Origin: Gemmatimonadota bacterium
Lineage (GTDB): Bacteria; Gemmatimonadota; Gemmatimonadetes; Gemmatimonadales; GWC2-71-9
Assembly: GCA_003246755.1 (NCBI GenBank)
Contig: QKDC01000165.1
Location: 1,651-65,650 of the forward strand
Length of the DNA: 64,000 nt
Direction of reading: 5' to 3'
The notes under the pieces are model-generated. The model saw nothing but the letters and a program-made list of their open reading frames with translations. It searched no databases and was not told where the DNA came from. Shown piece by piece: positions 41,906 to 56,343 of this stretch (position 1 is the first letter of the stretch; the number at the start of each line of letters is the position of its first letter). The position numbers and the translations under genes were made by a program.

Positions 41906-44900
41906 CTAGCGCCTCGAAGGCGCGATGATCCGGGTTTGGTAGGTACGAAGGTACTCCTGGTACGGGGCGCCTGCCGGGAAGCGTTCGTCGGGCCCGTAGG
42001 GGTACTCCGTCATCCCATGAAACGGCAGCGGTTCCACAGCGGTACCGAGCGCGGTATTGAGATCGGAGTCCTTGATCCACCCGTCCGTGTAAAGCAGGAA
42101 GTCACGCCTCCAACCATTGGGCAGTGCGGGGGCAGCGGCAGCGTCGAATTCGATGGTTGTCTCATCCCCCGGGGCCATCACGATGTATTGGTCGTCCGCA
42201 GTACCAAGGAGGGAGACGACGTCCCCGTAACGGGTAAACGCACCGGTAATCGGTCGCCACCGCGGCTCGGTGGCCACCGTTCCGTAGTCGAACCAGTGAG
42301 GGCCGTATCGTCCACCTTTCCGGAAGGTGCGGGAGAACCCACGGTAGTGCAGGTCCGCCGAGACCGGAACGAGAGTCGTGACTCGGACTGGACTGCTCGA
42401 TGCGGTCCCGGCGATAAAGGCCTGATCCCAATAGATCTGCATGTTGGATCGTATTCTGACCCGGTGATCATCGGTCGGAAACTTTCCAGTGAGGTCGGCA
42501 ATCACGGTCTTCGCCTTCCCGGAGGGAAAGCCAAGGTCGGGGATCACGGTCTGCCATCGGCCGGACGCGTCAACGACATCGAGCGACGGCCATTGGACCT
42601 GGAACGCGCTCGACTGAGCAACCGCGACGTTGATGCTGGCGTCGGAGGGGAAGATCCAGCCATTGAGGAAGAGGAAGAGGCTGTCCGCCGCGGGAACCTC
42701 TCCGAGATCGAGGATCAACTCATGTGGTGTGGTGATCCCCTGGTATCGCGTCGGTGTGAGGTACGGCGCGTAGCGGTGATCCCTGTCGGTGAGAGCCGAC
42801 AAGACGTCCATGCCCTGACCATCGATCGCCGACACCGGTGGGCGGGCTCCAGGGACGTGGTAGAGGCGGAGGCTCGTCGGCCCCGGTGGCACGAAGCGCT
42901 CGTTGACGTAAACTTCAACCGAATCCGGATGATCCAGCACCAGCAGTTTGACTTCATCGAGGTAAGCGGTTTCCCAGAGCTCTTCGGTGACTTGCAGGGA
43001 GTATCGGCCGTTCTTCGGTCGAAGCAGTTCTCCCGCAATACGCACGTATTCTGTCGACGCCGCCGCCGGAGCGTACTTGGTGTTCCCACCCATGATTCCC
43101 AGGGGCATCCCGATCGCGCTGCGCCACATGACGTCCGTCACGAACTCATACCGCTCGCCATTCCATGCGTACGTGAAGGCGCATGACCCCTTGAGTACAT
43201 CCTGCTCGATGATCTCTCCCGAACTCCCAGGCGAGAGGACCTGGGGCACCCCGTTGGGCCAGGTGACCCGGATGACGTCGGCCGTTCGGTGCGTCGCGAG
43301 CCCGAAATGGGTGACTCGCTCGGTGACCACTCGGGACTGGTAGAGGTCGCCTGATCGAATCTCGACCCGCGCACCGATCCCGAACGCGTTGTTCTTCCCA
43401 CTTCCGGTCCGCAAGGCCGTGAGTTGAACCTTCACGTAGAAATTGGTGTTACCCCCATCGTTTCGGAGCACACGCACCCCGGTCGGCATGGAGACGAGTA
43501 GGTCCTCGTCCCCGTCGAGATCGTAGTCGGTGACGGCCAAAGCACCGCCGCCGACGTTCGGGAGTATCTCGGAGCGATCCTCGAAGCGTCCCCGCCCGTC
43601 GTTGGCCAGCAGGACAGTCCCTCGCGCCTGATCTGCCAAAGGTCGTCCCGTGACGATGAGGTCCAAATCTCCATCGTTGTCATAGTCGATCGTGCCGAGG
43701 GCCTGTGGGGATATCGTCGCCAGGACGCGACTGAGTTGGCTGTCATCGCCTCGGGAGAAAGAGCCATCTCCACGGTTGGTAAACATCCATCCCGCTCCCG
43801 CACTCTCCCCGACCACGATGAGGTCGAGATCTCCATCGCCATCATAGTCACCGGCCGTCACTGCCTTGGCGGGTCCGGGAGGGGTGAAGCCCGCGGCTGA
43901 GCCTTCGGCAAACCGGGACTGTCCCAGGTTCAGGTGCACACGATGATTGTCTTCCGCACCGACCGTGACGAGATCGATCAGTCCGTCATCGTCGAAGTCA
44001 CCGATCGCGGCCCCATTGGTCGATGCTGGAAGACCGGCAAGTCCGGTTTCGGATCCCAGGGGCGTGAAGGTGCCGTCGAGGTTGTTGCGGAAGACTCGGT
44101 CGAGATCTTCCGTGCCCAGGAAGAGGTCCAGGTCGCCGTCGTGATCGAAATCAAACCACAAGGCGACTCGTTCCGGGCCGATGACCCCCGCAAGGCGAGC
44201 GCTGGCATCGCGAAGCCCGCCGTCCGCCGGACGGAGAAAGAGGTGTCGTCCGTCCGAGCCACTCGTGTACAGGTCGAGCCGGCCGTCGTTGTCCGTATCG
44301 GCGAATACGGCGGTCAGTGGGAGATTGGTTGCCCCCAATTCCACCTCAACCGTGCTTGCGACATAGCGTCCACCCGCATTCCGAAAGAGCGTCGATCCGG
44401 TGAGGACGTCATCCACCCCGTCACCATCGAAGTCCCCCACCGCCAGGGACCTGGGTTGTCCTCCCCCCAGTGCCGAAAGGGCTCCCAGACCGGCTTCGGT
44501 CGTGGCGTCCCGAAACGCTATCGTCCGTCGCACGAGGTCGCTCCGTCCGGGGAGCTGAAGGATCGGGCTGTACGTCAGGACGGGAAAGCCCTCGAGGGGT
44601 CCACCGACGCCCGGTCCCTGTATCGAGCGCAGGTTGGACTGAAACTCTGGCGTGAGTTCCAGAAAACGCTGGAACCGAGCGAGCGGGGCCAGAGCAGCTT
44701 CCCAGTCACTCGATCGCAGATGTCGGAGCGCTTGCTCGAGGGTCGTCATCATCTCCCCCGGGGGCTGGGGGATCAGCCCCTGCAGCGCTTCGAGCTGCCC
44801 GAGGGCGCTGTCGGCATTTCCACGAGTCGCGAGCCCGACGGCCAATCGCAAGCGCGCTGCCAAGTTCCCCGGTGCCCCGACGACGACCCGACTCAGGTAA

Positions 44901-45376
44901 TCCAGGGATTCGCTGGACCCCGGGTCGTCGGCCTGCGCCAGTTCGGCAAGGCTGAAGAGAACCTTTGGGTTCGCGGGTTCACGCTGGGCGAGCCGCAGCA
45001 GCTCGCGACGGGATTCCTCCGGGCGTCCCGTGAGTTCGTAGATCTTGGCCAGCAGGAGGTAGGTGGAGACTTCGGTCGTGTCGCGATCGAGGGCTCGGTG
45101 GAGTTGGGTCTCCGCCTCTCGATAGCGCCCGGATCGAACGAATACCAGGGCCAGATTGGAATAGCCAGAAGCAGCCCGAGGCAGCAAGTCGATGACCTGG
45201 CGAAACTCCGTTTCGGCCTCGTGAAGCCTCCCTTCCTGGAGGTATACCGACCCGAGTGTAGTTGCCGTCATGGCGCGGCCCACGGCGTCGGGCGCCTCGC
45301 GATTGCATGCGCTCGAAACCAGAACCCAAGACGCCAGAAGCGTCATGAGGTGCCGTGGGGTAGAACGAATTGGCAT
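41906..45376 (-). CDS. Lipoprotein: TPR + FG-GAP/VCBS repeats + UnbV/ASPIC domain + about 430-aa uncharacterised C-terminal region (CRTAC1 family, 1156 aa)
   Basis: Lipobox-like LVSSAC. TPR-like helical N-terminus. Repeats DFDGDGVDDV, DTDNDGRLDLY, DFDHDGDLDLF, DFDDDGLIDLV, DYDGDGDLDLIV, DYDNDGDLDLIV, DYDLDGDEDLLV. UnbV-like NAFGIGARVEIRSG. Confidence 0.8.
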   Translation of the reverse strand: MPIRSTPRHLMTLLASWVLVSSACNREAPDAVGRAMTATTLGSVYLQEGRLHEAETEFRQVIDLLPRAASGYSNLALVFVRSGRYREAETQLHRALDRDTTEVSTYLLLAKIYELTGRPEESRRELLRLAQREPANPKVLFSLAELAQADDPGSSESLDYLSRVVVGAPGNLAARLRLAVGLATRGNADSALGQLEALQGLIPQPPGEMMTTLEQALRHLRSSDWEAALAPLARFQRFLELTPEFQSNLRSIQGPGVGGPLEGFPVLTYSPILQLPGRSDLVRRTIAFRDATTEAGLGALSALGGGQPRSLAVGDFDGDGVDDVLTGSTLFRNAGGRYVASTVEVELGATNLPLTAVFADTDNDGRLDLYTSGSDGRHLFLRPADGGLRDASARLAGVIGPERVALWFDFDHDGDLDLFLGTEDLDRVFRNNLDGTFTPLGSETGLAGLPASTNGAAIGDFDDDGLIDLVTVGAEDNHRVHLNLGQSRFAEGSAAGFTPPGPAKAVTAGDYDGDGDLDLIVVGESAGAGWMFTNRGDGSFSRGDDSQLSRVLATISPQALGTIDYDNDGDLDLIVTGRPLADQARGTVLLANDGRGRFEDRSEILPNVGGGALAVTDYDLDGDEDLLVSMPTGVRVLRNDGGNTNFYVKVQLTALRTGSGKNNAFGIGARVEIRSGDLYQSRVVTERVTHFGLATHRTADVIRVTWPNGVPQVLSPGSSGEIIEQDVLKGSCAFTYAWNGERYEFVTDVMWRSAIGMPLGIMGGNTKYAPAAASTEYVRIAGELLRPKNGRYSLQVTEELWETAYLDEVKLLVLDHPDSVEVYVNERFVPPGPTSLRLYHVPGARPPVSAIDGQGMDVLSALTDRDHRYAPYLTPTRYQGITTPHELILDLGEVPAADSLFLFLNGWIFPSDASINVAVAQSSAFQVQWPSLDVVDASGRWQTVIPDLGFPSGKAKTVIADLTGKFPTDDHRVRIRSNMQIYWDQAFIAGTASSSPVRVTTLVPVSADLHYRGFSRTFRKGGRYGPHWFDYGTVATEPRWRPITGAFTRYGDVVSLLGTADDQYIVMAPGDETTIEFDAAAAPALPNGWRRDFLLYTDGWIKDSDLNTALGTAVEPLPFHGMTEYPYGPDERFPAGAPYQEYLRTYQTRIIAPSRR

Positions 45377-45479: not shown

Positions 45480-47240
45480 GTGACTTCCCTCGACCGTCGA
45501 CGGCTCATCGTGAGTGGCCTCTTTCTCGGCGCCATCGGACTGGTAGCCTATCTCGGCCAGGCCCGTGACGCCTCGCTGGCCGGGATCGGTCACCCGGGAT
45601 TTCGGCTCGAAGAGGTCTCCGCCGATGTTGGGATCGATTTTCGTCATCATCGGCCTACGCTCGATCCTGTCTTCGACAACATCGCGCCCCACATCGCGGG
45701 AGTTGGCGCGGGGGTCTCCGTAACCGACGCTAACCGTGACGGTTGGCCCGACCTCTACTTCACCAATAGCCGGTTCGATGAGCCCAACGCGTTGTACCTC
45801 AATCAAGGTGACGGCCGGTTCGTGGAGATGGCCGCCTCGGCGGGTGTCGCGAATCTCAACCAGAAGAGCGAGGGCGTGTCGATGGGGTCGGTCTGGGGCG
45901 ACTACGATAACGACGGCCTCGAAGATCTCCTGGTGTATCGGTACGGTTATCTCCGGCTCTACCGGAACCTCGGAAGCCTTCAATTCGAGGATGTGACCGC
46001 CTCGGCGGGCCTTCGTCGTTGGGTCAACAGCAACGGAGCGATCTGGTTCGATTTCGATCGCGATGGTCTGCTGGACCTGTACGTGACGGCGTACTTCCGC
46101 TCCGATGTGAACCTGTGGAATCCGGTCACCACACGGATCATGCACAACAGCTTCGAGTTTGCAGCCAACGGAGGGAGAAATCTCCTCTTCCGGAATGTTG
46201 GGGACGGGCGATTCGAAGATGTCACCGAGCGCATGGGAGTGGGGAGCACGCGCTGGACCCTTGCCGCAGCATCGGCAGACTTCAACGCCGACGGGTGGCC
46301 CGACTTGTACCTCGCGAACGACTACGGCCCCGAGGAGTTCTTCGTCAACGAGGGGGGGACACGGTTTGTCCTCACGCGGGCGGGGCTCGAAACCGATTCC
46401 AAGAGCGGGATGTCGGTTTCTCTCGGGGACATGTCCAATCGCGGGCGCCTCGACGTCTTTGTCACCAACATTTCCGAGCGCGGGTATCTCTTCCAGGACA
46501 ACAACCTGCGGCTCAACCTCCTTGCAGAGGTGGGACGGTTCGAGGACGTGGCGAGCGGCGTGGTGGCGGATGCCGGATGGGCTTGGGGTGCACAGTTCGG
46601 TGACTTGAACAACGACGGATGGAACGATCTCTATGTCCTCAATGGATTCGTCTCGGCCGACAGGGACAAGAGCTACTGGTATGAGATGTCGAAGGTGGCC
46701 GGAGCAAACGGTAACATCTTCGAAGACGCTCGGAACTGGCCTGCGATGGGCTCGACGAGCCTCTCAGGTTATGAGCGGTCTCGTGTCCTCCTCAATCTCG
46801 GTGCCTCGGGCTGGGTGGACGTGGCTGACTCCGTCGGGGTGACGGACGAGTACGATGGTCGCGCGGTCGCGCTGGTCGATCTCTTCAATCGCGGCGTCCT
46901 CGATGTGGTGATCGCCAATCAAGATCAGCCTGCCACGGTTTACCGAAATACCGTGACCCCGGGAAACCACTGGATAGGCTTCGCCCTGGAGGGAACCCGA
47001 AGTAACCGGAGTGCCATCGGTGCGGAAGTCGTGATCGAGTTTTCTGGGGGGCACCAACGGAAGGTTGTTGATGGCGGGATGGGCTTTGCCAGTCAGAATG
47101 ACCGCAGGCTCCATTTTGGTCTGGGATCGGCGGGTCGTGTGGAACGGGCGGTGATCCATTGGCCCTCGGGGATGACGCAGATCTTGACGGATCTCGCTGT
47201 CGATCGACTGCACCATGTGGTCGAGCCCGATAGGCTGTGA
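45480..47240 (+). CDS. CRTAC1-family FG-GAP/VCBS + UnbV/ASPIC protein (586 aa)
   Basis: GTG start. N-terminal DRRRLIVSGLFLGAIGLVAYLG anchor/signal. Repeats DANRDGWPDLYF, DYDNDGLEDLLV, DFDRDGLLDLYV, DFNADGWPDLYL, DLNNDGWNDLYV. UnbV-like NRSAIGAEVVIEFSG...ASQNDRRLHFGLG. Confidence 0.85.
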   Translation: MTSLDRRRLIVSGLFLGAIGLVAYLGQARDASLAGIGHPGFRLEEVSADVGIDFRHHRPTLDPVFDNIAPHIAGVGAGVSVTDANRDGWPDLYFTNSRFDEPNALYLNQGDGRFVEMAASAGVANLNQKSEGVSMGSVWGDYDNDGLEDLLVYRYGYLRLYRNLGSLQFEDVTASAGLRRWVNSNGAIWFDFDRDGLLDLYVTAYFRSDVNLWNPVTTRIMHNSFEFAANGGRNLLFRNVGDGRFEDVTERMGVGSTRWTLAAASADFNADGWPDLYLANDYGPEEFFVNEGGTRFVLTRAGLETDSKSGMSVSLGDMSNRGRLDVFVTNISERGYLFQDNNLRLNLLAEVGRFEDVASGVVADAGWAWGAQFGDLNNDGWNDLYVLNGFVSADRDKSYWYEMSKVAGANGNIFEDARNWPAMGSTSLSGYERSRVLLNLGASGWVDVADSVGVTDEYDGRAVALVDLFNRGVLDVVIANQDQPATVYRNTVTPGNHWIGFALEGTRSNRSAIGAEVVIEFSGGHQRKVVDGGMGFASQNDRRLHFGLGSAGRVERAVIHWPSGMTQILTDLAVDRLHHVVEPDRL

Positions 47241-48064
47241 CGGACACCATCTTGAGACGCCTCGACCCTAAGCACTTCATCATCATTCTCATCACCCTCG
47301 TGCTCGTGCTGGGCGAGGCGAAGTACTCAGTCCTCGGTGGCTACGACCGCCTGGCCATGACGCTCAGCGTCTGTGTTGCCACGGAGCTAGCGTTCTCGTG
47401 GTTCATCCGCGGGAAGATGCCGGGCCTCCAGAGCGCCTACGTGAGTGGAATCAGTCTGGCGCTCCTCACCAAGCCGCAAGGTCATCTCCTCTGGCCGTTT
47501 GCGTTGGGAGCGTTTCTCGCCATCGCCTCCAAGTACGTCGTTCAGGTCCACGGTCGCCACCTGTGGAACCCGTCGAATTTCTCGATCAGTCTGCTCCTGC
47601 TCCTCGCCCCCGGCCGGATGAGTGTTCTGAGCCATCAGTGGGGCAACGACCTCTTCACCAATGCCATCATCTGGGGAATCGGCCTCCTCGTGGTCTCACG
47701 CGCCAAGGTGCTACACGTCACATTGACCTATGTCGCAAGCTTCTTCACACTCGGCTTCATCCGGAGTCAGCTCGTGGGGACTCCACTGCTTCCCGAGGTA
47801 GCTCCGATCACAGGGCCCATGTACCAGCTCTTCGTCTTCTTCATGGTGACCGATCCGCGAACCACGGTCCGGAGCAGGAGGGGGCGCATGCTGGTTGTTG
47901 GGATTGTGGCGCTGGTCGAGGCCGCAATTCGGCTGGCTTCCGATTTCCATCTGCCCGTCCCGGCCGCGCTCTCGGCGTCGCCCCCCATCCTGGCTCTCGC
48001 AATCGTCGGGCCCATCGCGATGTGGATCGACCTACGACGCACGCCGGCTGCCGCGGCGGTGTAG
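47237..48064 (+). CDS. Polytopic membrane protein, UnbU-like / RnfD-NqrB-like (tentative)
   Basis: GTGA overlap with the upstream CRTAC1 gene. About 8 TM segments. HLWNPSNFSISLLLL resembles the (F/L)NPA-type loop of RnfD/NqrB-like proteins. The family call is tentative, from memory. Confidence 0.45.
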   Translation: MTDTILRRLDPKHFIIILITLVLVLGEAKYSVLGGYDRLAMTLSVCVATELAFSWFIRGKMPGLQSAYVSGISLALLTKPQGHLLWPFALGAFLAIASKYVVQVHGRHLWNPSNFSISLLLLLAPGRMSVLSHQWGNDLFTNAIIWGIGLLVVSRAKVLHVTLTYVASFFTLGFIRSQLVGTPLLPEVAPITGPMYQLFVFFMVTDPRTTVRSRRGRMLVVGIVALVEAAIRLASDFHLPVPAALSASPPILALAIVGPIAMWIDLRRTPAAAAV

Positions 48065-48084
48065 CTCCTGGTCCGGTCGCGTGG

Positions 48085-48103
48085 CGCGTTGAGTCTCGAC
48101 GCG
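48085..48103. terminator. Hairpin between convergent genes (possible bidirectional terminator)
   Basis: cgcgttga (48085-48092) / loop gtc / tcgacgcg (48096-48103). 8 bp including one G-U pair. No clear U-tract. Confidence 0.3.
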
Positions 48104-50689
<2,586 letters not shown>

Positions 50690-50698
50690 GGAGAGAGG

Positions 50699-52783
50699 TT
50701 ACCGCATTCCGGTCGTCACGGGAATCGTGGCGTGGTCCTCGGACATGACCGTGACTGGTGCGGTGATCCCGGCTTCCTCGGTGAAGAGGAAGTTGAGCAA
50801 GAATTGGTCTGTCTTCCGGTACAGGAGGCGCGCGGTCACACGCAATTCCGTCACCGCGTCGGTGGGAGGGGGCACGGCGACCACCCGGTCGAGTGCGGCC
50901 AGCGCGGTCTCCGTTCCCGCAGTCACGATGGCACCCGGGTACAAGAAGGTGAATTCGGCCTGGTCGGAGAGACCGGGGAAGAGCGACCGTCGGTAGCGGA
51001 CGCCGACCATCTCCCAGAGGTTGTGCCGATCGATGAGGTTACCGTATTGGTCGACCGGCTCGGCCTTGAGGATGAACGATCCGGGTGCGATGAAGTGTGA
51101 GGAGTCACGCTGCCCAGTCCGGTAGACCACGTTCCCGTTTTGATCCGTGACCTCCACTTCCACCCAGGCCTGGATGATGTCGAGCGGCCCAGTGGGGAAG
51201 TCATGGCCCACTTTGTTGTTGGTGAGTACTGTCTGGATCGTGACCGGCTCTCCGGGGCTGACCTGGGGCGGAGCCACGATGCGTATGGGGACGGCGGGGC
51301 CCTCGCGCCACTTATCCGCAATCTCCGGGACGTCGATCTCACCTCGAAGCCACTTTTCGGTCAGGGCGACGTGTTCCGCGGCCCCGGGAAGTTCGAGGGC
51401 GAGGGGCATGAATTGGTTCGCGGCCAGGAACCTGTGACTTCGGTGTTTCCCATCGGTGGGAGAACGGTTGTAGTCGAGATCGTCACCGCGGCCAGGGTCC
51501 TCCGAGGCCACGAGCGGCATATGGCATTCGCGACACTCCACCGTTTTGGTGGGGTCCCCGGGGGTATTCCAACGGCTCTTGCGCCAGTTATCGAACTGAT
51601 TCTGAAGCTGGACCCACCCAACCTGGTTGATCTCTTCGTCGATGAACTGCTTATGGCAGGCCGCGCAGAACTCTGGGCTCTTGAAGAGCTTGTGCTGGAG
51701 GCTCTTGACGTGATACCGCGGGTATGCCTTGATGAGAAATTCGCCAATCAATTGCCTGGGCCCGCCGTCGGCACCTTCGAACAGGTAGCGGCCGGGTTGG
51801 GAAATGACATAGTTCGCATTCCCCTGAACATCCGTCTCCGAAATCGAATGACAGGAAACGCACGAAATGCCTTCCTGATAGCCGCTCAGGGACGTGAGAT
51901 CCTCGACGAAGATGTTCTTGGTACCTGAAAAGAGGGAGATGGGGTCATGACATCCGCCACAATAGCGAGTGGATTCCGCCCCGTTTTGTTTTCCCATGAC
52001 GGATTGGACCGCCAGAAACGCAGCATCCATTGCCGAATAGCGATGCGCGCTGACTGCCCATTCGTCGTAGATCGCCTTGTGGCAACCTGCGGTGCCACAT
52101 GAAGCCGAACCCGACAACGACCGCGCGTCGAAGGCCCCTCCCGTACTGGTCCGGGCCAGGCTCGGTGCAAAAGGACGTTCGGGGCCGTAGAGGTAGCTGT
52201 AATCTTCTGGAAGTTCGTTGACGAACGGGGCGGGAGCCACCCACAGGGCTCCCACCACCGCTACCGCTATCAATCCGCCCGTCCAGAGCATTGTGCTCAG
52301 ACCGAATCCCTTGACTGCGCGTGCCAGTGCGGGTTCCCGAGTCGCTGGTGCGAGGGCCCGTACGATGACCGTGGCGAGATGTGGGACGACCGACGCCACC
52401 AGGGCAAACGTTGCCACGATATGGCTGAGATCCCACACACGCCCAATTCGGGTTCCCACGACGGACTGCCAGGTGAGGACCAGCCCGGAGATGACGAGCA
52501 CGAGCGTCGCCCCCAGGGCGAAATACCCCGTGAGCGTCTCATGGCTGAGCCGCAACGAGCGATAGGTGCGCCAATGCCGGACCAGATACCACACGAATGG
52601 GAGGATGCAAACCAGCCCGATCCCCGTATGGAGGATGACCATCACCTGGTTGGAGACACTGAAGGGGAGCAGGAAGATCGAGAGACCGGTCAGGGTCTCG
52701 AACACCATCAGACCGGAGACCGACCGCAAGAGCCGGCTTTGCCATTCCGAGGATTTTTGGGCCGCGTAGCCAGGTTTGACCAC
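50699..52783 (-). CDS. Fusion of a 5-TM His-containing membrane domain with a periplasmic multihaem c-type cytochrome (cytochrome c554-like) and a C-terminal beta-rich domain
   Basis: Haem motifs CGGCH, CVSCH, CAACH, CRECH plus CGTAGCH (nt 52079-52099), the last followed by KAIYDEWAVSAH. TM region has His residues in ILHTGIG, LVRHWRT, DLSHIVA, VVPHLAT. Start uncertain: GTG 52783 preferred, ATG 52708 possible; the track ORF runs to 53038. Confidence 0.75.
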   Translation of the reverse strand: MVKPGYAAQKSSEWQSRLLRSVSGLMVFETLTGLSIFLLPFSVSNQVMVILHTGIGLVCILPFVWYLVRHWRTYRSLRLSHETLTGYFALGATLVLVISGLVLTWQSVVGTRIGRVWDLSHIVATFALVASVVPHLATVIVRALAPATREPALARAVKGFGLSTMLWTGGLIAVAVVGALWVAPAPFVNELPEDYSYLYGPERPFAPSLARTSTGGAFDARSLSGSASCGTAGCHKAIYDEWAVSAHRYSAMDAAFLAVQSVMGKQNGAESTRYCGGCHDPISLFSGTKNIFVEDLTSLSGYQEGISCVSCHSISETDVQGNANYVISQPGRYLFEGADGGPRQLIGEFLIKAYPRYHVKSLQHKLFKSPEFCAACHKQFIDEEINQVGWVQLQNQFDNWRKSRWNTPGDPTKTVECRECHMPLVASEDPGRGDDLDYNRSPTDGKHRSHRFLAANQFMPLALELPGAAEHVALTEKWLRGEIDVPEIADKWREGPAVPIRIVAPPQVSPGEPVTIQTVLTNNKVGHDFPTGPLDIIQAWVEVEVTDQNGNVVYRTGQRDSSHFIAPGSFILKAEPVDQYGNLIDRHNLWEMVGVRYRRSLFPGLSDQAEFTFLYPGAIVTAGTETALAALDRVVAVPPPTDAVTELRVTARLLYRKTDQFLLNFLFTEEAGITAPVTVMSEDHATIPVTTGMR

Positions 52784-52932
52784 CGTACGTGGGCTCCGTT
52801 GTGCAAGGGGGGGGAACAGATTCGTCGTGAAGTGATACTGGCCCTCATCTGAAGCAGTCGTGAACCCCGTATGAAGCGGGTGTGTAAGGTGTGTGGGCCC
52901 ACGGACTTCACTTCTTACCGGAGTGTGCCATC

Positions 52933-53337
52933 GTGATCGCCAGACTCTCACTCTTATCCCTGTTGGTGTGCCTTGGCTGCTCCACTTCCAGCCCAGGAGG
53001 CCCGAACCCCCCGCCTCCCCCTGGCCCTCCACCACCACCGCCTCCTTCCCCGTCGCCCGCAGTTACCGTCACGGTGCAGAACAACCTCTTCACGCCTGAG
53101 ATCGCCAGTGTGAATGTCGGAGGGACGGTGACCTGGAACTGGGTCAGCAGTGACCATACGGTCACTTCGGTGCTCTCTCCCGCCTTCAACGCCAACACGG
53201 GGGTCCAGAACACCGGGTTCACCCTTGGCCCGTTGACGTTCAACACCGCGGGGACATTCGCCTACATCTGTACGGTTCACGGCTCCGTCAGTGGAAACTC
53301 GACTTCGGGAATGGCAGGGACTGTGGTGGTTCAGTAA
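52933..53337 (+). CDS. Lipoprotein cupredoxin (type-1 blue copper protein) with poly-Pro linker
   Basis: GTG 52933 (VIARLSLLSLLVCLGC lipobox). Linker PNPPPPPGPPPPPPPSPSP. Ligand pattern H (SSDHTV) ... C-x2-H-x11-M (ICTVHGSVSGNSTSGM). Confidence 0.75.
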   Translation: MIARLSLLSLLVCLGCSTSSPGGPNPPPPPGPPPPPPPSPSPAVTVTVQNNLFTPEIASVNVGGTVTWNWVSSDHTVTSVLSPAFNANTGVQNTGFTLGPLTFNTAGTFAYICTVHGSVSGNSTSGMAGTVVVQ

Positions 53338-53344
53338 CCGGAAC

Positions 53345-53377
53345 TCGGTGGGCACTGGTGAGGAGCCAGCCCACCGA
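53345..53377 (+). terminator. Strong hairpin after the cupredoxin stop (terminator candidate, no U-tract)
   Basis: tcggtgggc(ac)tgg (53345-53358) / loop tgaggag / ccagcccaccga (53366-53377). 12 bp with a 2-nt bulge. Confidence 0.35.
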
Positions 53378-53457
53378 AGAGCTTCTCCCTGGCGTCCGGG
53401 GCAAACCCTGGATACTCTAGCGGGCAGATTCCTTCACCTGCGATCCCTGGAGTAACC

Positions 53458-56343
53458 ATGGACTTGTCCCTCACGCTCAGGCGCCTCTCGTGTCTGATCC
53501 TCGTTGGTCTCCTGATCCCGTTCTCCGATGTCTCGGCGCAGGACCTCCTCAATCAAACCTCTGACCCTCTGCTCCGTGGTTTCCGCTGGCGTTCGATCGG
53601 CCCGGCGGGACAGGGCGGTCGCGTCGATGACATCGAGGCGGTCGAAACCGATCCCACCACCTTCTACGTGGGCTTCGCGACGGGGGGCCTTTGGAAGACT
53701 ACGAATCAGGGCATCACCTTCGAGCCGATCTTCGACAGATACGGAACACATTCTGTTGGTGATATCGCGATTGCTCCATCCAACCCGGATGTGGTCTACG
53801 TCGGCACGGGCGAGGCCAACAATCGGCAGAGTTCCTCGTTCGGTGACGGCGTGTACAAGACGACCGATGGAGGCAAGACGTTTGCCCACGTTGGTTTGCG
53901 GAACACGCAGTCGATCGCGCGGGTCGTCGTGCACCCCACGAACCCGGATGTGGTCTGGGTCGCTGCCATCGGTCACCTGTTTGGTCCCAACCCAGACCGA
54001 GGCGTCTTCCTGACCACCGATGGGGGGAGGACCTGGACCAAGACGCTCTTCGTGGACGACAATACAGGAGCGACGGACCTCATCATCCACCCCACCAACC
54101 CCCAGGTTCTGTTCGCGGCCACCTACGAGAGGCGGCGAACCGCATGGGGGTTCGCGAGCGGCGGATCCGCCACGGGGATCTGGAAGAGCGCCGATGGAGG
54201 CCGCAGTTGGACCCGCCTCCGCGGGAATGGGCTGCCCGAGGGGACGATGGGGAGGATCGGCCTGGCGATCAGCCGGTCGAATCCAGACGTCGTGTACATC
54301 CAAGCGGAAGTGGCGCCCGACAGGGAACCGCAGGATCGAAGCGCGGCTCCCAGTCAGGGTGGTCCGGGAGGGGGGGGATTCGGCCAGCAGGATGAGCCAC
54401 CCGACGACAAGGTGAGCGGGGTATGGCGATCGGATGATGGCGGCAACAGCTGGAGCTTCATGAGTAACGAGAACAACCGCCCCATGTATTACAGCCAGAT
54501 CAGGGTCGATCCACGTGACCCGATGACGGTGTACGTTGGCGGGCAGCAGGCCTCGAAATCGGTGGATGGCGGCAAGACCTTCGAACCGATGCGAGGCATG
54601 GGCCATGTGGACAACCACGCGATCTGGATCGACCCCAACGACAGTCGCCATGTGATGTACGGAAACGACGGCTCGGTGGACGTTTCGTGGGATGGTGGCG
54701 AGAACTGGGAGTCGCTTCGGTCCTGGGCGGTGGGCCAGCCGTATCATGCGTCGGTGGATATGCGCCACCCGTACTACGTCTGCACCGGTCTGCAAGACAA
54801 TGGGAGTTGGTGTGGACCCAGTTCCGCGCGAAGTGGTTCGATCCTTTCGCAGGATTGGTATCGAGTCGGGGGCGGGGATGGGTTCTACACGCTCGTTGAT
54901 CCGACCGACCCCAACACGATCTACAGCGAGTCACAAAACGGCAATGTCCGACGCGTGGATCTTGGTACCGGGGAGTCCGTCTCGATCCGACCGAGGATCG
55001 GTGGAGGAGGCGGTGGCGGATTCGGTGGTGGCGGAACCCCCAACATCGTCCCCATCCCGGACGACAATCCGCGGATCAGGTGGAACTGGAACACGCCGTT
55101 GGTGATGTCCGCCCATACTCCGACGACGATCTACGCGGGTGGAAATGCCCTTTTCATTTCGCGTGACCGGGGTACCACCTGGACCATGACGTCCGACCTG
55201 ACCAAGGGCATCGACAAAGACGAGCGAAGCATTCTCGGCATGAGGGGGACCATGCCTCGATGCAGCCGACAGCGGAGTGGCGCGTGTATTCACTCGCGCA
55301 ACGACGGTGTGAATGCCTACGGCACGATCGTATCCATCTCAGAGTCATCAATCACCCCTTCCATACTCTGGGTGGGAACGGACGATGGGAACATCCAAGT
55401 GTCCAGGGATGGGGGAACGACCTGGACGGAAGTAGGAAAGAATCTCCCCGGCGGTCCGAAGGAGTATTACGTCTCTCGGGTTGAAGCGTCCCATTTCGAT
55501 CGGTCGACGGCCTATGCCTCACTGGACGGGCATCGGAGCGATGACCTGAATCCATATGTCTTCGTGACCCGAGACTATGGCGCCACCTGGTCGTCCATTT
55601 CTGCGGGGCTCCCATCGGTTGGAAACGTCAATACCGTTCGAGAGGACCCCCGGAATTCCAACTTGCTATATGTCGGGACCGAGTTTGGTGTCTTCGTATC
55701 GCTCGATGCCGGCGGGCACTGGAAGCGCTTCATGAGCGGTCTCCCCGTGGTGCGCATCGACGATATCCTGGTCCATCCGCGAGAGAATGATCTCGTGCTC
55801 GCATCGCACGGCCGCAGTGTCTGGATCATGGACGACGTGACGGCCCTCCAGCAGCTGGCCGGCACCACACCGCGGGAACCGGTGCTTCTCCAGCCTCAGA
55901 ACACCGTGCGCTGGAAGCAGGACGTCCGACAGCAGCGATCGGTCACCGGCGCGAAGAACTTCGAGGGCGAGAATGCGCCACGGGGGACTGCGATCGGTTA
56001 CTATCTGCCCGCCGCCGCTCGGGGCGATGTCAAGATCACGATTCGTGCGTTGGGGAGTGATTCTGTCTTTCGGACTATCGAGGGAACCCGGGAGGCCGGA
56101 CTCAACCGGTTGCAGTGGGATCTCTGCAGCGATCCCCGGCCAGTGCAGCAGGGTCAGGGTGGATTCGGCGGCTTCGGTGGTGGTGGGTGTGGCGGAGGAG
56201 GCTTTGGTGGCGGGCAACAGGGTCAGCGACGCATCGCACGACTCGCCGATCCTGGTTCCTACGTCGTCACCCTCGAGGTGGGTGGCCGAGAATACGCCAA
56301 AGGCGTGACGGTGCTCGAGGACATCTGGCTGAACGAGCGCTAA
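53458..56343 (+). CDS. Sortilin/VPS10-like BNR (Asp-box) repeat protein, secreted, 961 aa (paralogue of 9774..13007)
   Basis: Signal peptide. Asp-boxes TTDGGKTFAHV, TTDGGRTWTKT, SADGGRSWTRL, SDDGGNSWSFM, SVDGGKTFEPM, SWDGGENWESL, SRDRGTTWTMT, SRDGGTTWTEV. Two Gly/Phe-rich inserts. Confidence 0.8.
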   Translation: MDLSLTLRRLSCLILVGLLIPFSDVSAQDLLNQTSDPLLRGFRWRSIGPAGQGGRVDDIEAVETDPTTFYVGFATGGLWKTTNQGITFEPIFDRYGTHSVGDIAIAPSNPDVVYVGTGEANNRQSSSFGDGVYKTTDGGKTFAHVGLRNTQSIARVVVHPTNPDVVWVAAIGHLFGPNPDRGVFLTTDGGRTWTKTLFVDDNTGATDLIIHPTNPQVLFAATYERRRTAWGFASGGSATGIWKSADGGRSWTRLRGNGLPEGTMGRIGLAISRSNPDVVYIQAEVAPDREPQDRSAAPSQGGPGGGGFGQQDEPPDDKVSGVWRSDDGGNSWSFMSNENNRPMYYSQIRVDPRDPMTVYVGGQQASKSVDGGKTFEPMRGMGHVDNHAIWIDPNDSRHVMYGNDGSVDVSWDGGENWESLRSWAVGQPYHASVDMRHPYYVCTGLQDNGSWCGPSSARSGSILSQDWYRVGGGDGFYTLVDPTDPNTIYSESQNGNVRRVDLGTGESVSIRPRIGGGGGGGFGGGGTPNIVPIPDDNPRIRWNWNTPLVMSAHTPTTIYAGGNALFISRDRGTTWTMTSDLTKGIDKDERSILGMRGTMPRCSRQRSGACIHSRNDGVNAYGTIVSISESSITPSILWVGTDDGNIQVSRDGGTTWTEVGKNLPGGPKEYYVSRVEASHFDRSTAYASLDGHRSDDLNPYVFVTRDYGATWSSISAGLPSVGNVNTVREDPRNSNLLYVGTEFGVFVSLDAGGHWKRFMSGLPVVRIDDILVHPRENDLVLASHGRSVWIMDDVTALQQLAGTTPREPVLLQPQNTVRWKQDVRQQRSVTGAKNFEGENAPRGTAIGYYLPAAARGDVKITIRALGSDSVFRTIEGTREAGLNRLQWDLCSDPRPVQQGQGGFGGFGGGGCGGGGFGGGQQGQRRIARLADPGSYVVTLEVGGREYAKGVTVLEDIWLNER

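Follow-up and report, generated by a model that had tools for sequence, protein, structure and literature searches.

CbcL of Geobacter sulfurreducens is an inner-membrane b- and c-type cytochrome that is regarded as a quinone-pool oxidoreductase (PMC9129911). A 'PHC' family, whose members have five haems and an immunoglobulin (Ig)-like domain, has been defined to group 5ZE8, the pentahaem cytochrome c552 from Thermochromatium tepidum, with ExtKL/MccSep, Gsu2801 of Geobacter and the cytochromes of cable bacteria (PMC11976967), among which are sPHC and lPHC (PMC11976967, bioRxiv 10.1101/2025.11.18.688581). In this work, we analyzed a stretch of 64,000 nucleotides from a Gemmatimonadota bacterium (contig QKDC01000165.1, hereafter the window), in which a gene located on the minus strand, at positions 50699–52783, encodes a protein of 694 amino acids (aa) that fuses a membrane domain of five helices to a pentahaem c-type domain, and is followed by a gene for a CRTAC1-like calcium β-propeller. 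We favor, with reasonable but not full confidence, the idea that this protein is a quinone-pool-linked inner-membrane b/c cytochrome that serves the propeller.

CbcL represents the closest working analogue of this protein, given that in both a single polypeptide joins a membrane domain, dihaem and b-type in CbcL and putatively so here, to a periplasmic multihaem c domain. However, CbcL has six helices, nine c haems and a c domain with an unrelated fold, whereas the cytochrome of the window has five helices and five haems, and the partner genes of the two proteins are not alike. The order of the domains also differs: in the CbcL-like genes of a related genome the c domain comes first, whereas here the b-like domain comes first and the fifth helix leads out of it. 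These CbcL-like genes were observed as three tandem copies in a related Gemmatimonadota genome (L095, G127:C157:9000-18784), each encoding a multihaem c domain followed by a transmembrane (TM) helix and a PF01292 cytochrome b domain that scores above the Pfam cut-off. Frames of about 1000 aa with PF01292 matches in related genomes were considered as long forms of the family studied here and rejected, since they belong to this separate CbcL-like family, with the c domain before the b domain. Regarding 5ZE8 and the other PHC proteins, the likeness resides in the presence of five c haems followed by an Ig-like β-sandwich; in contrast, these proteins are soluble and periplasmic, carry a signal peptide, and have neither a membrane domain nor a CRTAC1-like partner. 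The general design, a fusion of cytochrome b with a multihaem domain, and the periplasmic fold are already known. The novelty lies in the make-up of this fusion, with its PF01292-like bundle, additional fifth helix and pentahaem module of the PHC type, and most of all in the fact that it is strictly paired with a CRTAC1-like protein. Full-text literature searches returned no paper describing this fusion or the pairing of a cytochrome with such a propeller.

The membrane domain and its conserved histidines

The open reading frame (ORF) of the cytochrome comprises 694 codons, with a GTG start at 52783 and a TAA stop. Its limits were established from the ORF list, the translation and the agreement of the start with homologues, as the GTG at 52783 matches the N-termini of 25 of them (65–71% identity). 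A longer frame, extending up to 53038, was rejected because these 25 homologues start at the GTG at 52783 and the divergent upstream gene begins at 52891. The gene is present as one copy in the source genome. The AlphaFold2 model of the protein (77 input sequences, mean pLDDT 92.5, pTM 0.89) shows five long helices, then a mainly helical domain that extends to approximately residue 495, and a β-sandwich that reaches the C-terminus. C59 is the only Cys residue located outside the haem motifs.

The membrane domain (52241–52735, minus strand) was delimited by hydropathy, which reveals five hydrophobic segments in the N-terminal part of the protein, by the AlphaFold2 model, with TM helices at residues 17–38, 43–74, 81–108, 115–144 and 151–181, and by a profile comparison that covers TM1 to TM4 (see below). 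In this arrangement, TM1–TM4 would constitute a putative dihaem b bundle and TM5 would bring the polypeptide out to the periplasm. Arg and Lys are abundant in the N-terminal tail and in the loops 67–82 and 142–163, which, according to the positive-inside rule, fits an N-in/C-out topology and therefore a location of the haem c domain in the periplasm, the compartment where the covalent attachment of haem c occurs. Two matches to PF01578, the cytochrome c assembly family, were found above the cut-off in the source genome.

Four His residues of the membrane domain are kept in 62 diverse relatives (23–54% identity): H52, on the periplasmic side of TM2 (codon at 52628–52630), H70, at the cytoplasmic end of TM2 (52574–52576), and H121, on the periplasmic side of TM4 (52421–52423), are present in all 62, and H135, on the cytoplasmic side of TM4 (52379–52381), in 61 of them. 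These residues, all encoded on the minus strand, are putative haem b ligands. The membrane part contains a fifth His, H81, that is kept in close relatives only. H121 and H135 are separated by 14 residues in the same helix, TM4, a spacing that is found in dihaem b cytochromes such as FdnI and cytochrome b; in FdnI, two His with this spacing in a single helix are ligands of two haems, located close to opposite faces of the membrane.

The resemblance of this domain to known dihaem cytochromes was evaluated at the level of the family. PF01292 and DUF4405 were each matched by 6 of the 62 relatives, in all cases under the curated cut-offs. When the N-terminal domains of the relatives were isolated, they matched PF01292 over nearly the entire profile (best E 5e-5) and DUF4405 over TM3–TM4, again below the thresholds; the highest PF01292 score among the relatives was 23.6 bits, and the gathering cut-off of this family is 30.1 bits. 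Both PF01292 and DUF4405 (PF14358) belong to the dihaem-cytochrome clan of Pfam. Some homologues carry the NCBI name 'cytochrome b/b6 domain-containing protein'. A profile of 77 N-terminal domains of the family was also compared using hhalign with a profile of ten genuine PF01292 domains from related genomes. The resulting alignment comprises 128 columns across TM1–TM4 (Prob 63%, P 7e-5) and pairs H52 with the template's TM2 His, while H121 and H135 coincide with the first and second of its two TM4 His, respectively. The controls, which included the reversed template, eight column shuffles and an unrelated membrane protein, reached a Prob of at most 3%.

The probable likeness to PF01292 (b561/FdnI/HydC) consists of a four-helix bundle in which the TM2 His and the two TM4 His, 14 residues apart, can be aligned, whereas the cytochrome differs from PF01292 and DUF4405 in its extra fifth helix, the fused c-type domain, the absence of the TM1 His, the conserved H70 and its sub-threshold score. 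FdnI-type four-helix bundles (PF01292) have both termini in the cytoplasm, so that a domain placed in the periplasm has to be preceded by a fifth helix. Judging from these alignments, the membrane bundle is a probable remote relative of the prokaryotic cytochrome b561/FdnI family (PF01292), and there is a good chance that it binds haem b.

Several of these main features had been advanced in an original prediction, made by a model that saw only the DNA letters and their translated frames. It proposed a five-haem-motif c-type cytochrome fused to a five-TM domain at 50699–52783, and the motifs were found exactly at the positions it gave. Its argument that five TM helices would put the following domain in the periplasm agrees with the hydropathy, the AlphaFold2 model and the Arg/Lys-rich loops, and the four TM His that it singled out are those retained in the relatives. 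The comparison with cytochrome-b-like and DUF4405 domains that it recommended yielded the recurrent sub-threshold matches described above.

Some results weigh against a b-type, quinone-linked function of the membrane domain and its service to the propeller. With the N-terminus of the window protein itself, Pfam returned no family at E≤1. The TM1 His of PF01292 is without counterpart in the cytochrome; in its place the end of TM2 bears the invariant H70, which has no equivalent in PF01292 and lies 18, not 14, residues from H52. The fold search carried out with the isolated membrane domain (a separate model of residues 1–205, pLDDT 84) gave nothing significant, the top match being the human dihaem cytochrome b561 Dcytb with an E value of 0.27, and the PDB sequence-profile search with this domain gave zero matches. 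As for the propeller, its orthologues contain zero conserved Cys, two conserved His and no evident redox-cofactor site.

The absence of a Pfam family above threshold and of a significant fold match for the N-terminus would be expected if the protein were a membrane-tethered pentahaem cytochrome without b haems, whose helices are a mere anchor and whose electrons come from soluble cytochromes or from a neighboring cupredoxin. A gene for a cupredoxin-like lipoprotein, with weak matches to halocyanin and amicyanin, is indeed located divergently upstream of the cytochrome (52891–53337, plus strand). However, for a plain anchor one would expect neither four His residues fixed in position in 61–62 of the 62 relatives, the most distant of which share about 25% identity, nor as many as five helices, nor a PF01292 match that exceeds all the controls. 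The cupredoxin gene was searched for in related loci obtained from a scan of one genome per species, which matched at least 599 stretches, at least 579 of them encoding a relative of the cytochrome; the best 80 of these (59–69% identity), together with L001, constitute our neighborhood set. The cupredoxin was matched in none of the 80 related loci, so it was rejected as a dedicated conserved partner, and its juxtaposition with the cytochrome is specific to the source genome. We therefore regard a simple anchoring role as improbable, and retain the dihaem b bundle as the preferred view of this domain.

The periplasmic pentahaem module and its first haem motif

The periplasmic pentahaem c domain (about residues 205–495; 51299–52171, minus strand) has the PHC/c552 fold, as supported by PF13435 and by the profile and Foldseek matches to 5ZE8. 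Its haem motifs, all on the minus strand, are CGTAGCH (haem 1, a CX4CH motif, residues 229–235; 52079–52099), CGGCH (haem 2, residue 275; 51947–51961), CVSCH (haem 3, residue 308; 51848–51862), CAACH (haem 4, residue 373; 51653–51667) and CRECH (haem 5, residue 417; 51521–51535). All the Cys and His residues of these five motifs, including C229, C234 and H235 of the first one, are invariant in the 62 diverse relatives. The domain is followed by a C-terminal Ig-like β-sandwich (about residues 496–694; 50702–51298, minus strand), which in the AlphaFold2 model shows β strands between residues ~500 and 689, gives CARDB-type and Ig-like fold matches with Foldseek, and includes the loop with G526-H527 (NNKVGHDFPTG).

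The profile of the family matched one solved structure in the PDB, 5ZE8 (E 3.7e-5), and this was also the sole significant Foldseek match of the whole model (E 6e-12, target-normalised TM-score 0.68, 508 aligned columns). When the PDB was searched with the diverse family alignment, the results were dominated by TPR matches contributed by the long relatives. The cytochrome presents the two features that define the PHC fold, namely five haem c motifs in one domain and a C-terminal Ig-like domain that can be superposed on 5ZE8, and it shares with 5ZE8 the stretch CH-x4-W-x2-S-x-H that follows the first haem motif. The Pfam family PF13435 (Cytochrome_C554) is matched with 31.1 bits against a cut-off of 20.8, and also by 61 of the 62 relatives; this match is limited to residues 233–313, roughly the initial 80 residues of the haem domain. 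The likeness to the Nitrosomonas europaea cytochrome c554 (PF13435) is confined to this segment, whereas c554 is a soluble tetrahaem protein that is absent among the significant fold matches of the cytochrome. Hence, the assignment of the haem domain to the c554 family in the original prediction has to be replaced by the pentahaem c552/PHC fold, while the β-rich C-terminal domain that it announced is clearly present in the model.

MccSep, a member of the PHC family, is a polysulfide reductase whose active site is haem 2; this haem has a Cys ligand, and a D-G-U-P loop from the Ig-like domain lines it. This raises the question of whether the pentahaem module of the cytochrome could itself be catalytic, as in MccSep/ExtKL; in such a quinol-dependent haem enzyme, the b domain would feed quinol electrons to one c haem whose distal site would be either open or of an unusual kind and would be bordered by the H527 loop of the Ig-like domain, and the propeller would be merely a scaffold or a substrate presenter. 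The invariant His residues outside the motifs in the 62 relatives are H247, H358, H450 and H527, just four for five c haems, and the invariant G526-H527 pair is located in a loop of the same domain that lines the active-site haem in MccSep. These observations leave room for a reactive c haem, with H527 in the Ig-domain loop as one of only four invariant candidates for distal ligand. However, a less conserved His, or a Met or Lys, could serve as the fifth distal ligand, and the correspondence between the G526-H527 loop and the D-G-U-P loop is putative. Furthermore, the distal Cys of haem 2 and the Sec/Cys of the Ig loop that define MccSep are absent from the cytochrome, which has no Cys beyond the haem motifs and C59, and the score obtained with the MccSep/ExtKL model NF040886 is 26.3 bits, far from its cut-off of 250. 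The cytochrome shares the PHC fold and is not a member of the MccSep/ExtKL enzyme family. With these points on each side, a catalytic pentahaem module seems to us a rather unlikely explanation, and a cytochrome that exchanges electrons on behalf of the propeller remains the preferred one.

The first haem motif deserves separate consideration. In the profile alignment with the 5ZE8 chain, the segment CANCHEDIYRQWKGSMH lies opposite C-GTAG-CH-KAIYDEWAVSAH of the cytochrome; on the basis of this alignment, the CX4CH site is read as the canonical first CXXCH motif of the module, which 5ZE8 has, plus two inserted residues. CX4CH is retained in all 25 close orthologues. Among 89 representatives of the family with at least 600 aa, 37 carry CX4CH and 52 carry CXXCH. 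In a tree of these representatives built without the motif columns, the motif state is clustered (13 changes, compared with a mean of ~28 after shuffling), and the well-supported branches force at least four switches between CX4CH and CXXCH in the family. The cytochrome of the window belongs to a clade of 12–15 representatives (SH-aLRT 95–96), all of which have CX4CH. A sequencing error or a local oddity was rejected as the origin of the motif, in view of its invariance in the 25 close orthologues and its presence throughout this clade. In the literature, surveys of genomes routinely include CX3CH and CX4CH when haem c motifs are counted. According to the sequence comparisons, CX4CH is a real and inherited motif, interchangeable with CXXCH, and on present evidence no special catalytic feature.

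With respect to this motif, the original prediction located CX4CH at nucleotides 52079–52099 and suggested examining its spacing in orthologues, which turned out to share it. The idea that it takes the place of the canonical first CXXCH holds, but the motif is not singular. The same prediction had listed the outcomes that would speak against it (TM His residues that vary in orthologues, a canonical first motif in orthologues, a cytoplasmic haem domain), and in each case we found the opposite: the His residues are conserved, CX4CH occurs in all the close orthologues, and the charge pattern fits an N-in/C-out topology.

Pairing with a CRTAC1-like propeller

The gene located downstream of the cytochrome (48104–50689, minus strand) encodes a protein of 861 aa, and its identity as a partner is supported by Pfam, by the sequence of the junction and by the conserved adjacency. 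After the TAA of the cytochrome there are 9 bases (50690–50698, CCTCTCTCC) and then the ATG of the partner; this junction contains no Shine-Dalgarno-like purine run. Simple consensus scans of the region 47900–53500 revealed no sigma-70-type promoter-like or intrinsic-terminator-like site anywhere in it. The partner comprises an N-terminal RRRR sequence with a hydrophobic anchor, an FG-GAP propeller, a UnbV_ASPIC domain and C-terminal TPR; its matches to FG-GAP_3 (161 bits) and UnbV_ASPIC (PF07593, 60.6 bits) are above the cut-offs and identify it as CRTAC1-like. An RR(K/R)R sequence followed by a hydrophobic stretch is conserved at the N-terminus of 40 partner orthologues. Since no obvious cleavage site was seen, we interpret this region as an uncleaved signal anchor that may belong to the twin-arginine type.

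Of the 76 loci of the neighborhood set that extend far enough downstream, 75 encode a partner orthologue (46–65% identity) directly after the cytochrome and in the same orientation; in two of these 75 it begins ~1.5 kb past the cytochrome. In the remaining locus, L053, a partial partner match is found past a gap of ~600 nucleotides. Around relatives with 28–32% identity, FG-GAP genes are also present, either upstream or on both sides. The partner occurs in two size classes, of ~600 aa without TPR and ~850 aa with TPR, the latter domain being present in about half of the orthologous pairs; in the long relatives (850–970 aa), it is the cytochrome itself that carries the TPR. The movement of a domain between adjacent genes by fusion or fission is a classical sign that their products interact. 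Given that the TPR moves between these two genes, the products of the cytochrome and propeller genes most likely interact, probably as one complex. The electron conduit was described as "self-contained" in the original prediction; this attribute has to be abandoned, because the cytochrome gene opens a pair, strictly conserved, whose second member encodes the CRTAC1-like propeller.

We know of no biochemical role established for the CRTAC1/ASPIC family in bacteria. One paper reports CRTAC1-family genes between genes for haem proteins related to hydrazine synthase subunits in non-anammox bacteria, and this represents a second haem context for this propeller family.

Based on these data, we infer the following mechanism. 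The TM1–TM4 bundle would hold two b haems, one near the periplasmic face, with H52 and H121 as ligands, and the other near the cytoplasmic face, with H135 and H70 as ligands, and TM5 would take the chain outward to the periplasm. The b domain would exchange electrons with the membrane quinone pool, and the b haems would move them across the membrane dielectric. The five c haems, the first of them attached through CX4CH, would relay electrons to or from the periplasm. The membrane-anchored CRTAC1-like calcium β-propeller (FG-GAP plus UnbV/ASPIC, with or without TPR), presumably co-transcribed with the cytochrome, would form a complex with it and bind or transform a periplasmic substrate. The electrons might have their end point in the anchored propeller, or else in a reactive c haem bordered by the Ig loop.

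The combination of a putative dihaem b membrane domain with a multihaem c domain is the same general design as that of Geobacter CbcL, and CbcL-like fusions are present in related genomes, so the cytochrome could be conceived as an inner-membrane entry to extracellular electron transfer to or from minerals. Nevertheless, the ORFs of at least 150 aa that are common to the 80 loci correspond only to the cytochrome, to the propeller and to overlapping-frame shadows of both; no third conserved gene was found in a search across these loci, and the conserved partner is a propeller and not a porin or an outer-membrane cytochrome. We thus give very little credit to a role in mineral respiration, and consider that the cytochrome is better explained by its association with the propeller.

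Additional genes, distribution and significance of the family

Two other CRTAC1-like genes are located near the partner gene in the window. A second pair, convergent with the first (45480–48064, plus strand), encodes according to Pfam a CRTAC1-like protein of 586 aa and an RnfD/NqrB-like membrane protein of 275 aa, with a 4-nucleotide overlap between the genes; a second propeller is thus coupled, here translationally, to a membrane protein whose family is associated with redox functions. The pair is also found near the cytochrome in 8 of the 80 loci, all of them from Gemmatimonadota (L002, L004, L008, L015, L024, L042, L062 and L066), and in some members of this phylum it belongs to the cluster as an accessory element. 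Clusters of Arg followed by a hydrophobic stretch were noticed at the N-termini of two products, TRRRRLL in that of 48104–50689 and DRRRLIV in that of 45480–47240 (plus strand). A third CRTAC1 paralogue, the largest one (41906–45376, minus strand, 1156 aa), contains N-terminal TPRs, FG-GAP and UnbV_ASPIC, and ~430 further residues without a Pfam match.

Relatives of the cytochrome are numerous. A word-indexed search, which scored only the 8000 candidates with most words in common with the query, yielded 3423 of them at E≤0.001, and an exhaustive phmmer search of 1.84 billion representatives yielded 3122 matches at E≤0.001 and 462 at E≤1e-30, with full-length relatives reaching down to about 25–30% identity. 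The best 80 loci of the one-genome-per-species scan come from metagenome-assembled genomes (MAGs) labelled as Gemmatimonadota, Bacteroidota (Cyclobacteriaceae, Saprospiraceae and Rhodothermales), KSB1, Calditrichaceae, Marinimicrobia, Latescibacterota and Krumholzibacteriia, and the carrier MAGs bear at least seven phylum-level names. Within its own phylum the distribution is patchy: an orthologue with at least 60% identity was detected in 18 of 201 sampled genomes (about 9%), and many of those that lack it have only a distant, longer paralogue with ~33% identity. The ~33%-identical matches sit in frames of ~1000 aa (for example, G129:C2:3240110-3241390), which, by comparison with the TPR-fused representatives of 850–970 aa, may correspond to the TPR-fused form. 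The patchy distribution, together with an identity of about 60% across differently labelled phyla, could reflect horizontal spread.

Proteins such as CbcL, in which one polypeptide connects the quinone pool with haem chains of the periplasm, provide key points of entry into unusual respirations, and the cytochrome described here would represent a different solution to the same task, in a respiratory-type module spread over hundreds of bacterial species. The strict pairing points to an unstudied membrane redox complex and offers a functional lead for a large bacterial propeller family. We propose, tentatively, that CRTAC1-type calcium β-propellers might act together with a class of quinone-linked b/c cytochromes that has so far gone unrecognised, as the partners that bind the substrate or carry out the catalysis. 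If this is true, the two-gene module would represent a novel enzyme system of the periplasm, devoted to respiration or detoxification, and would provide the first redox function for the bacterial CRTAC1/ASPIC family.

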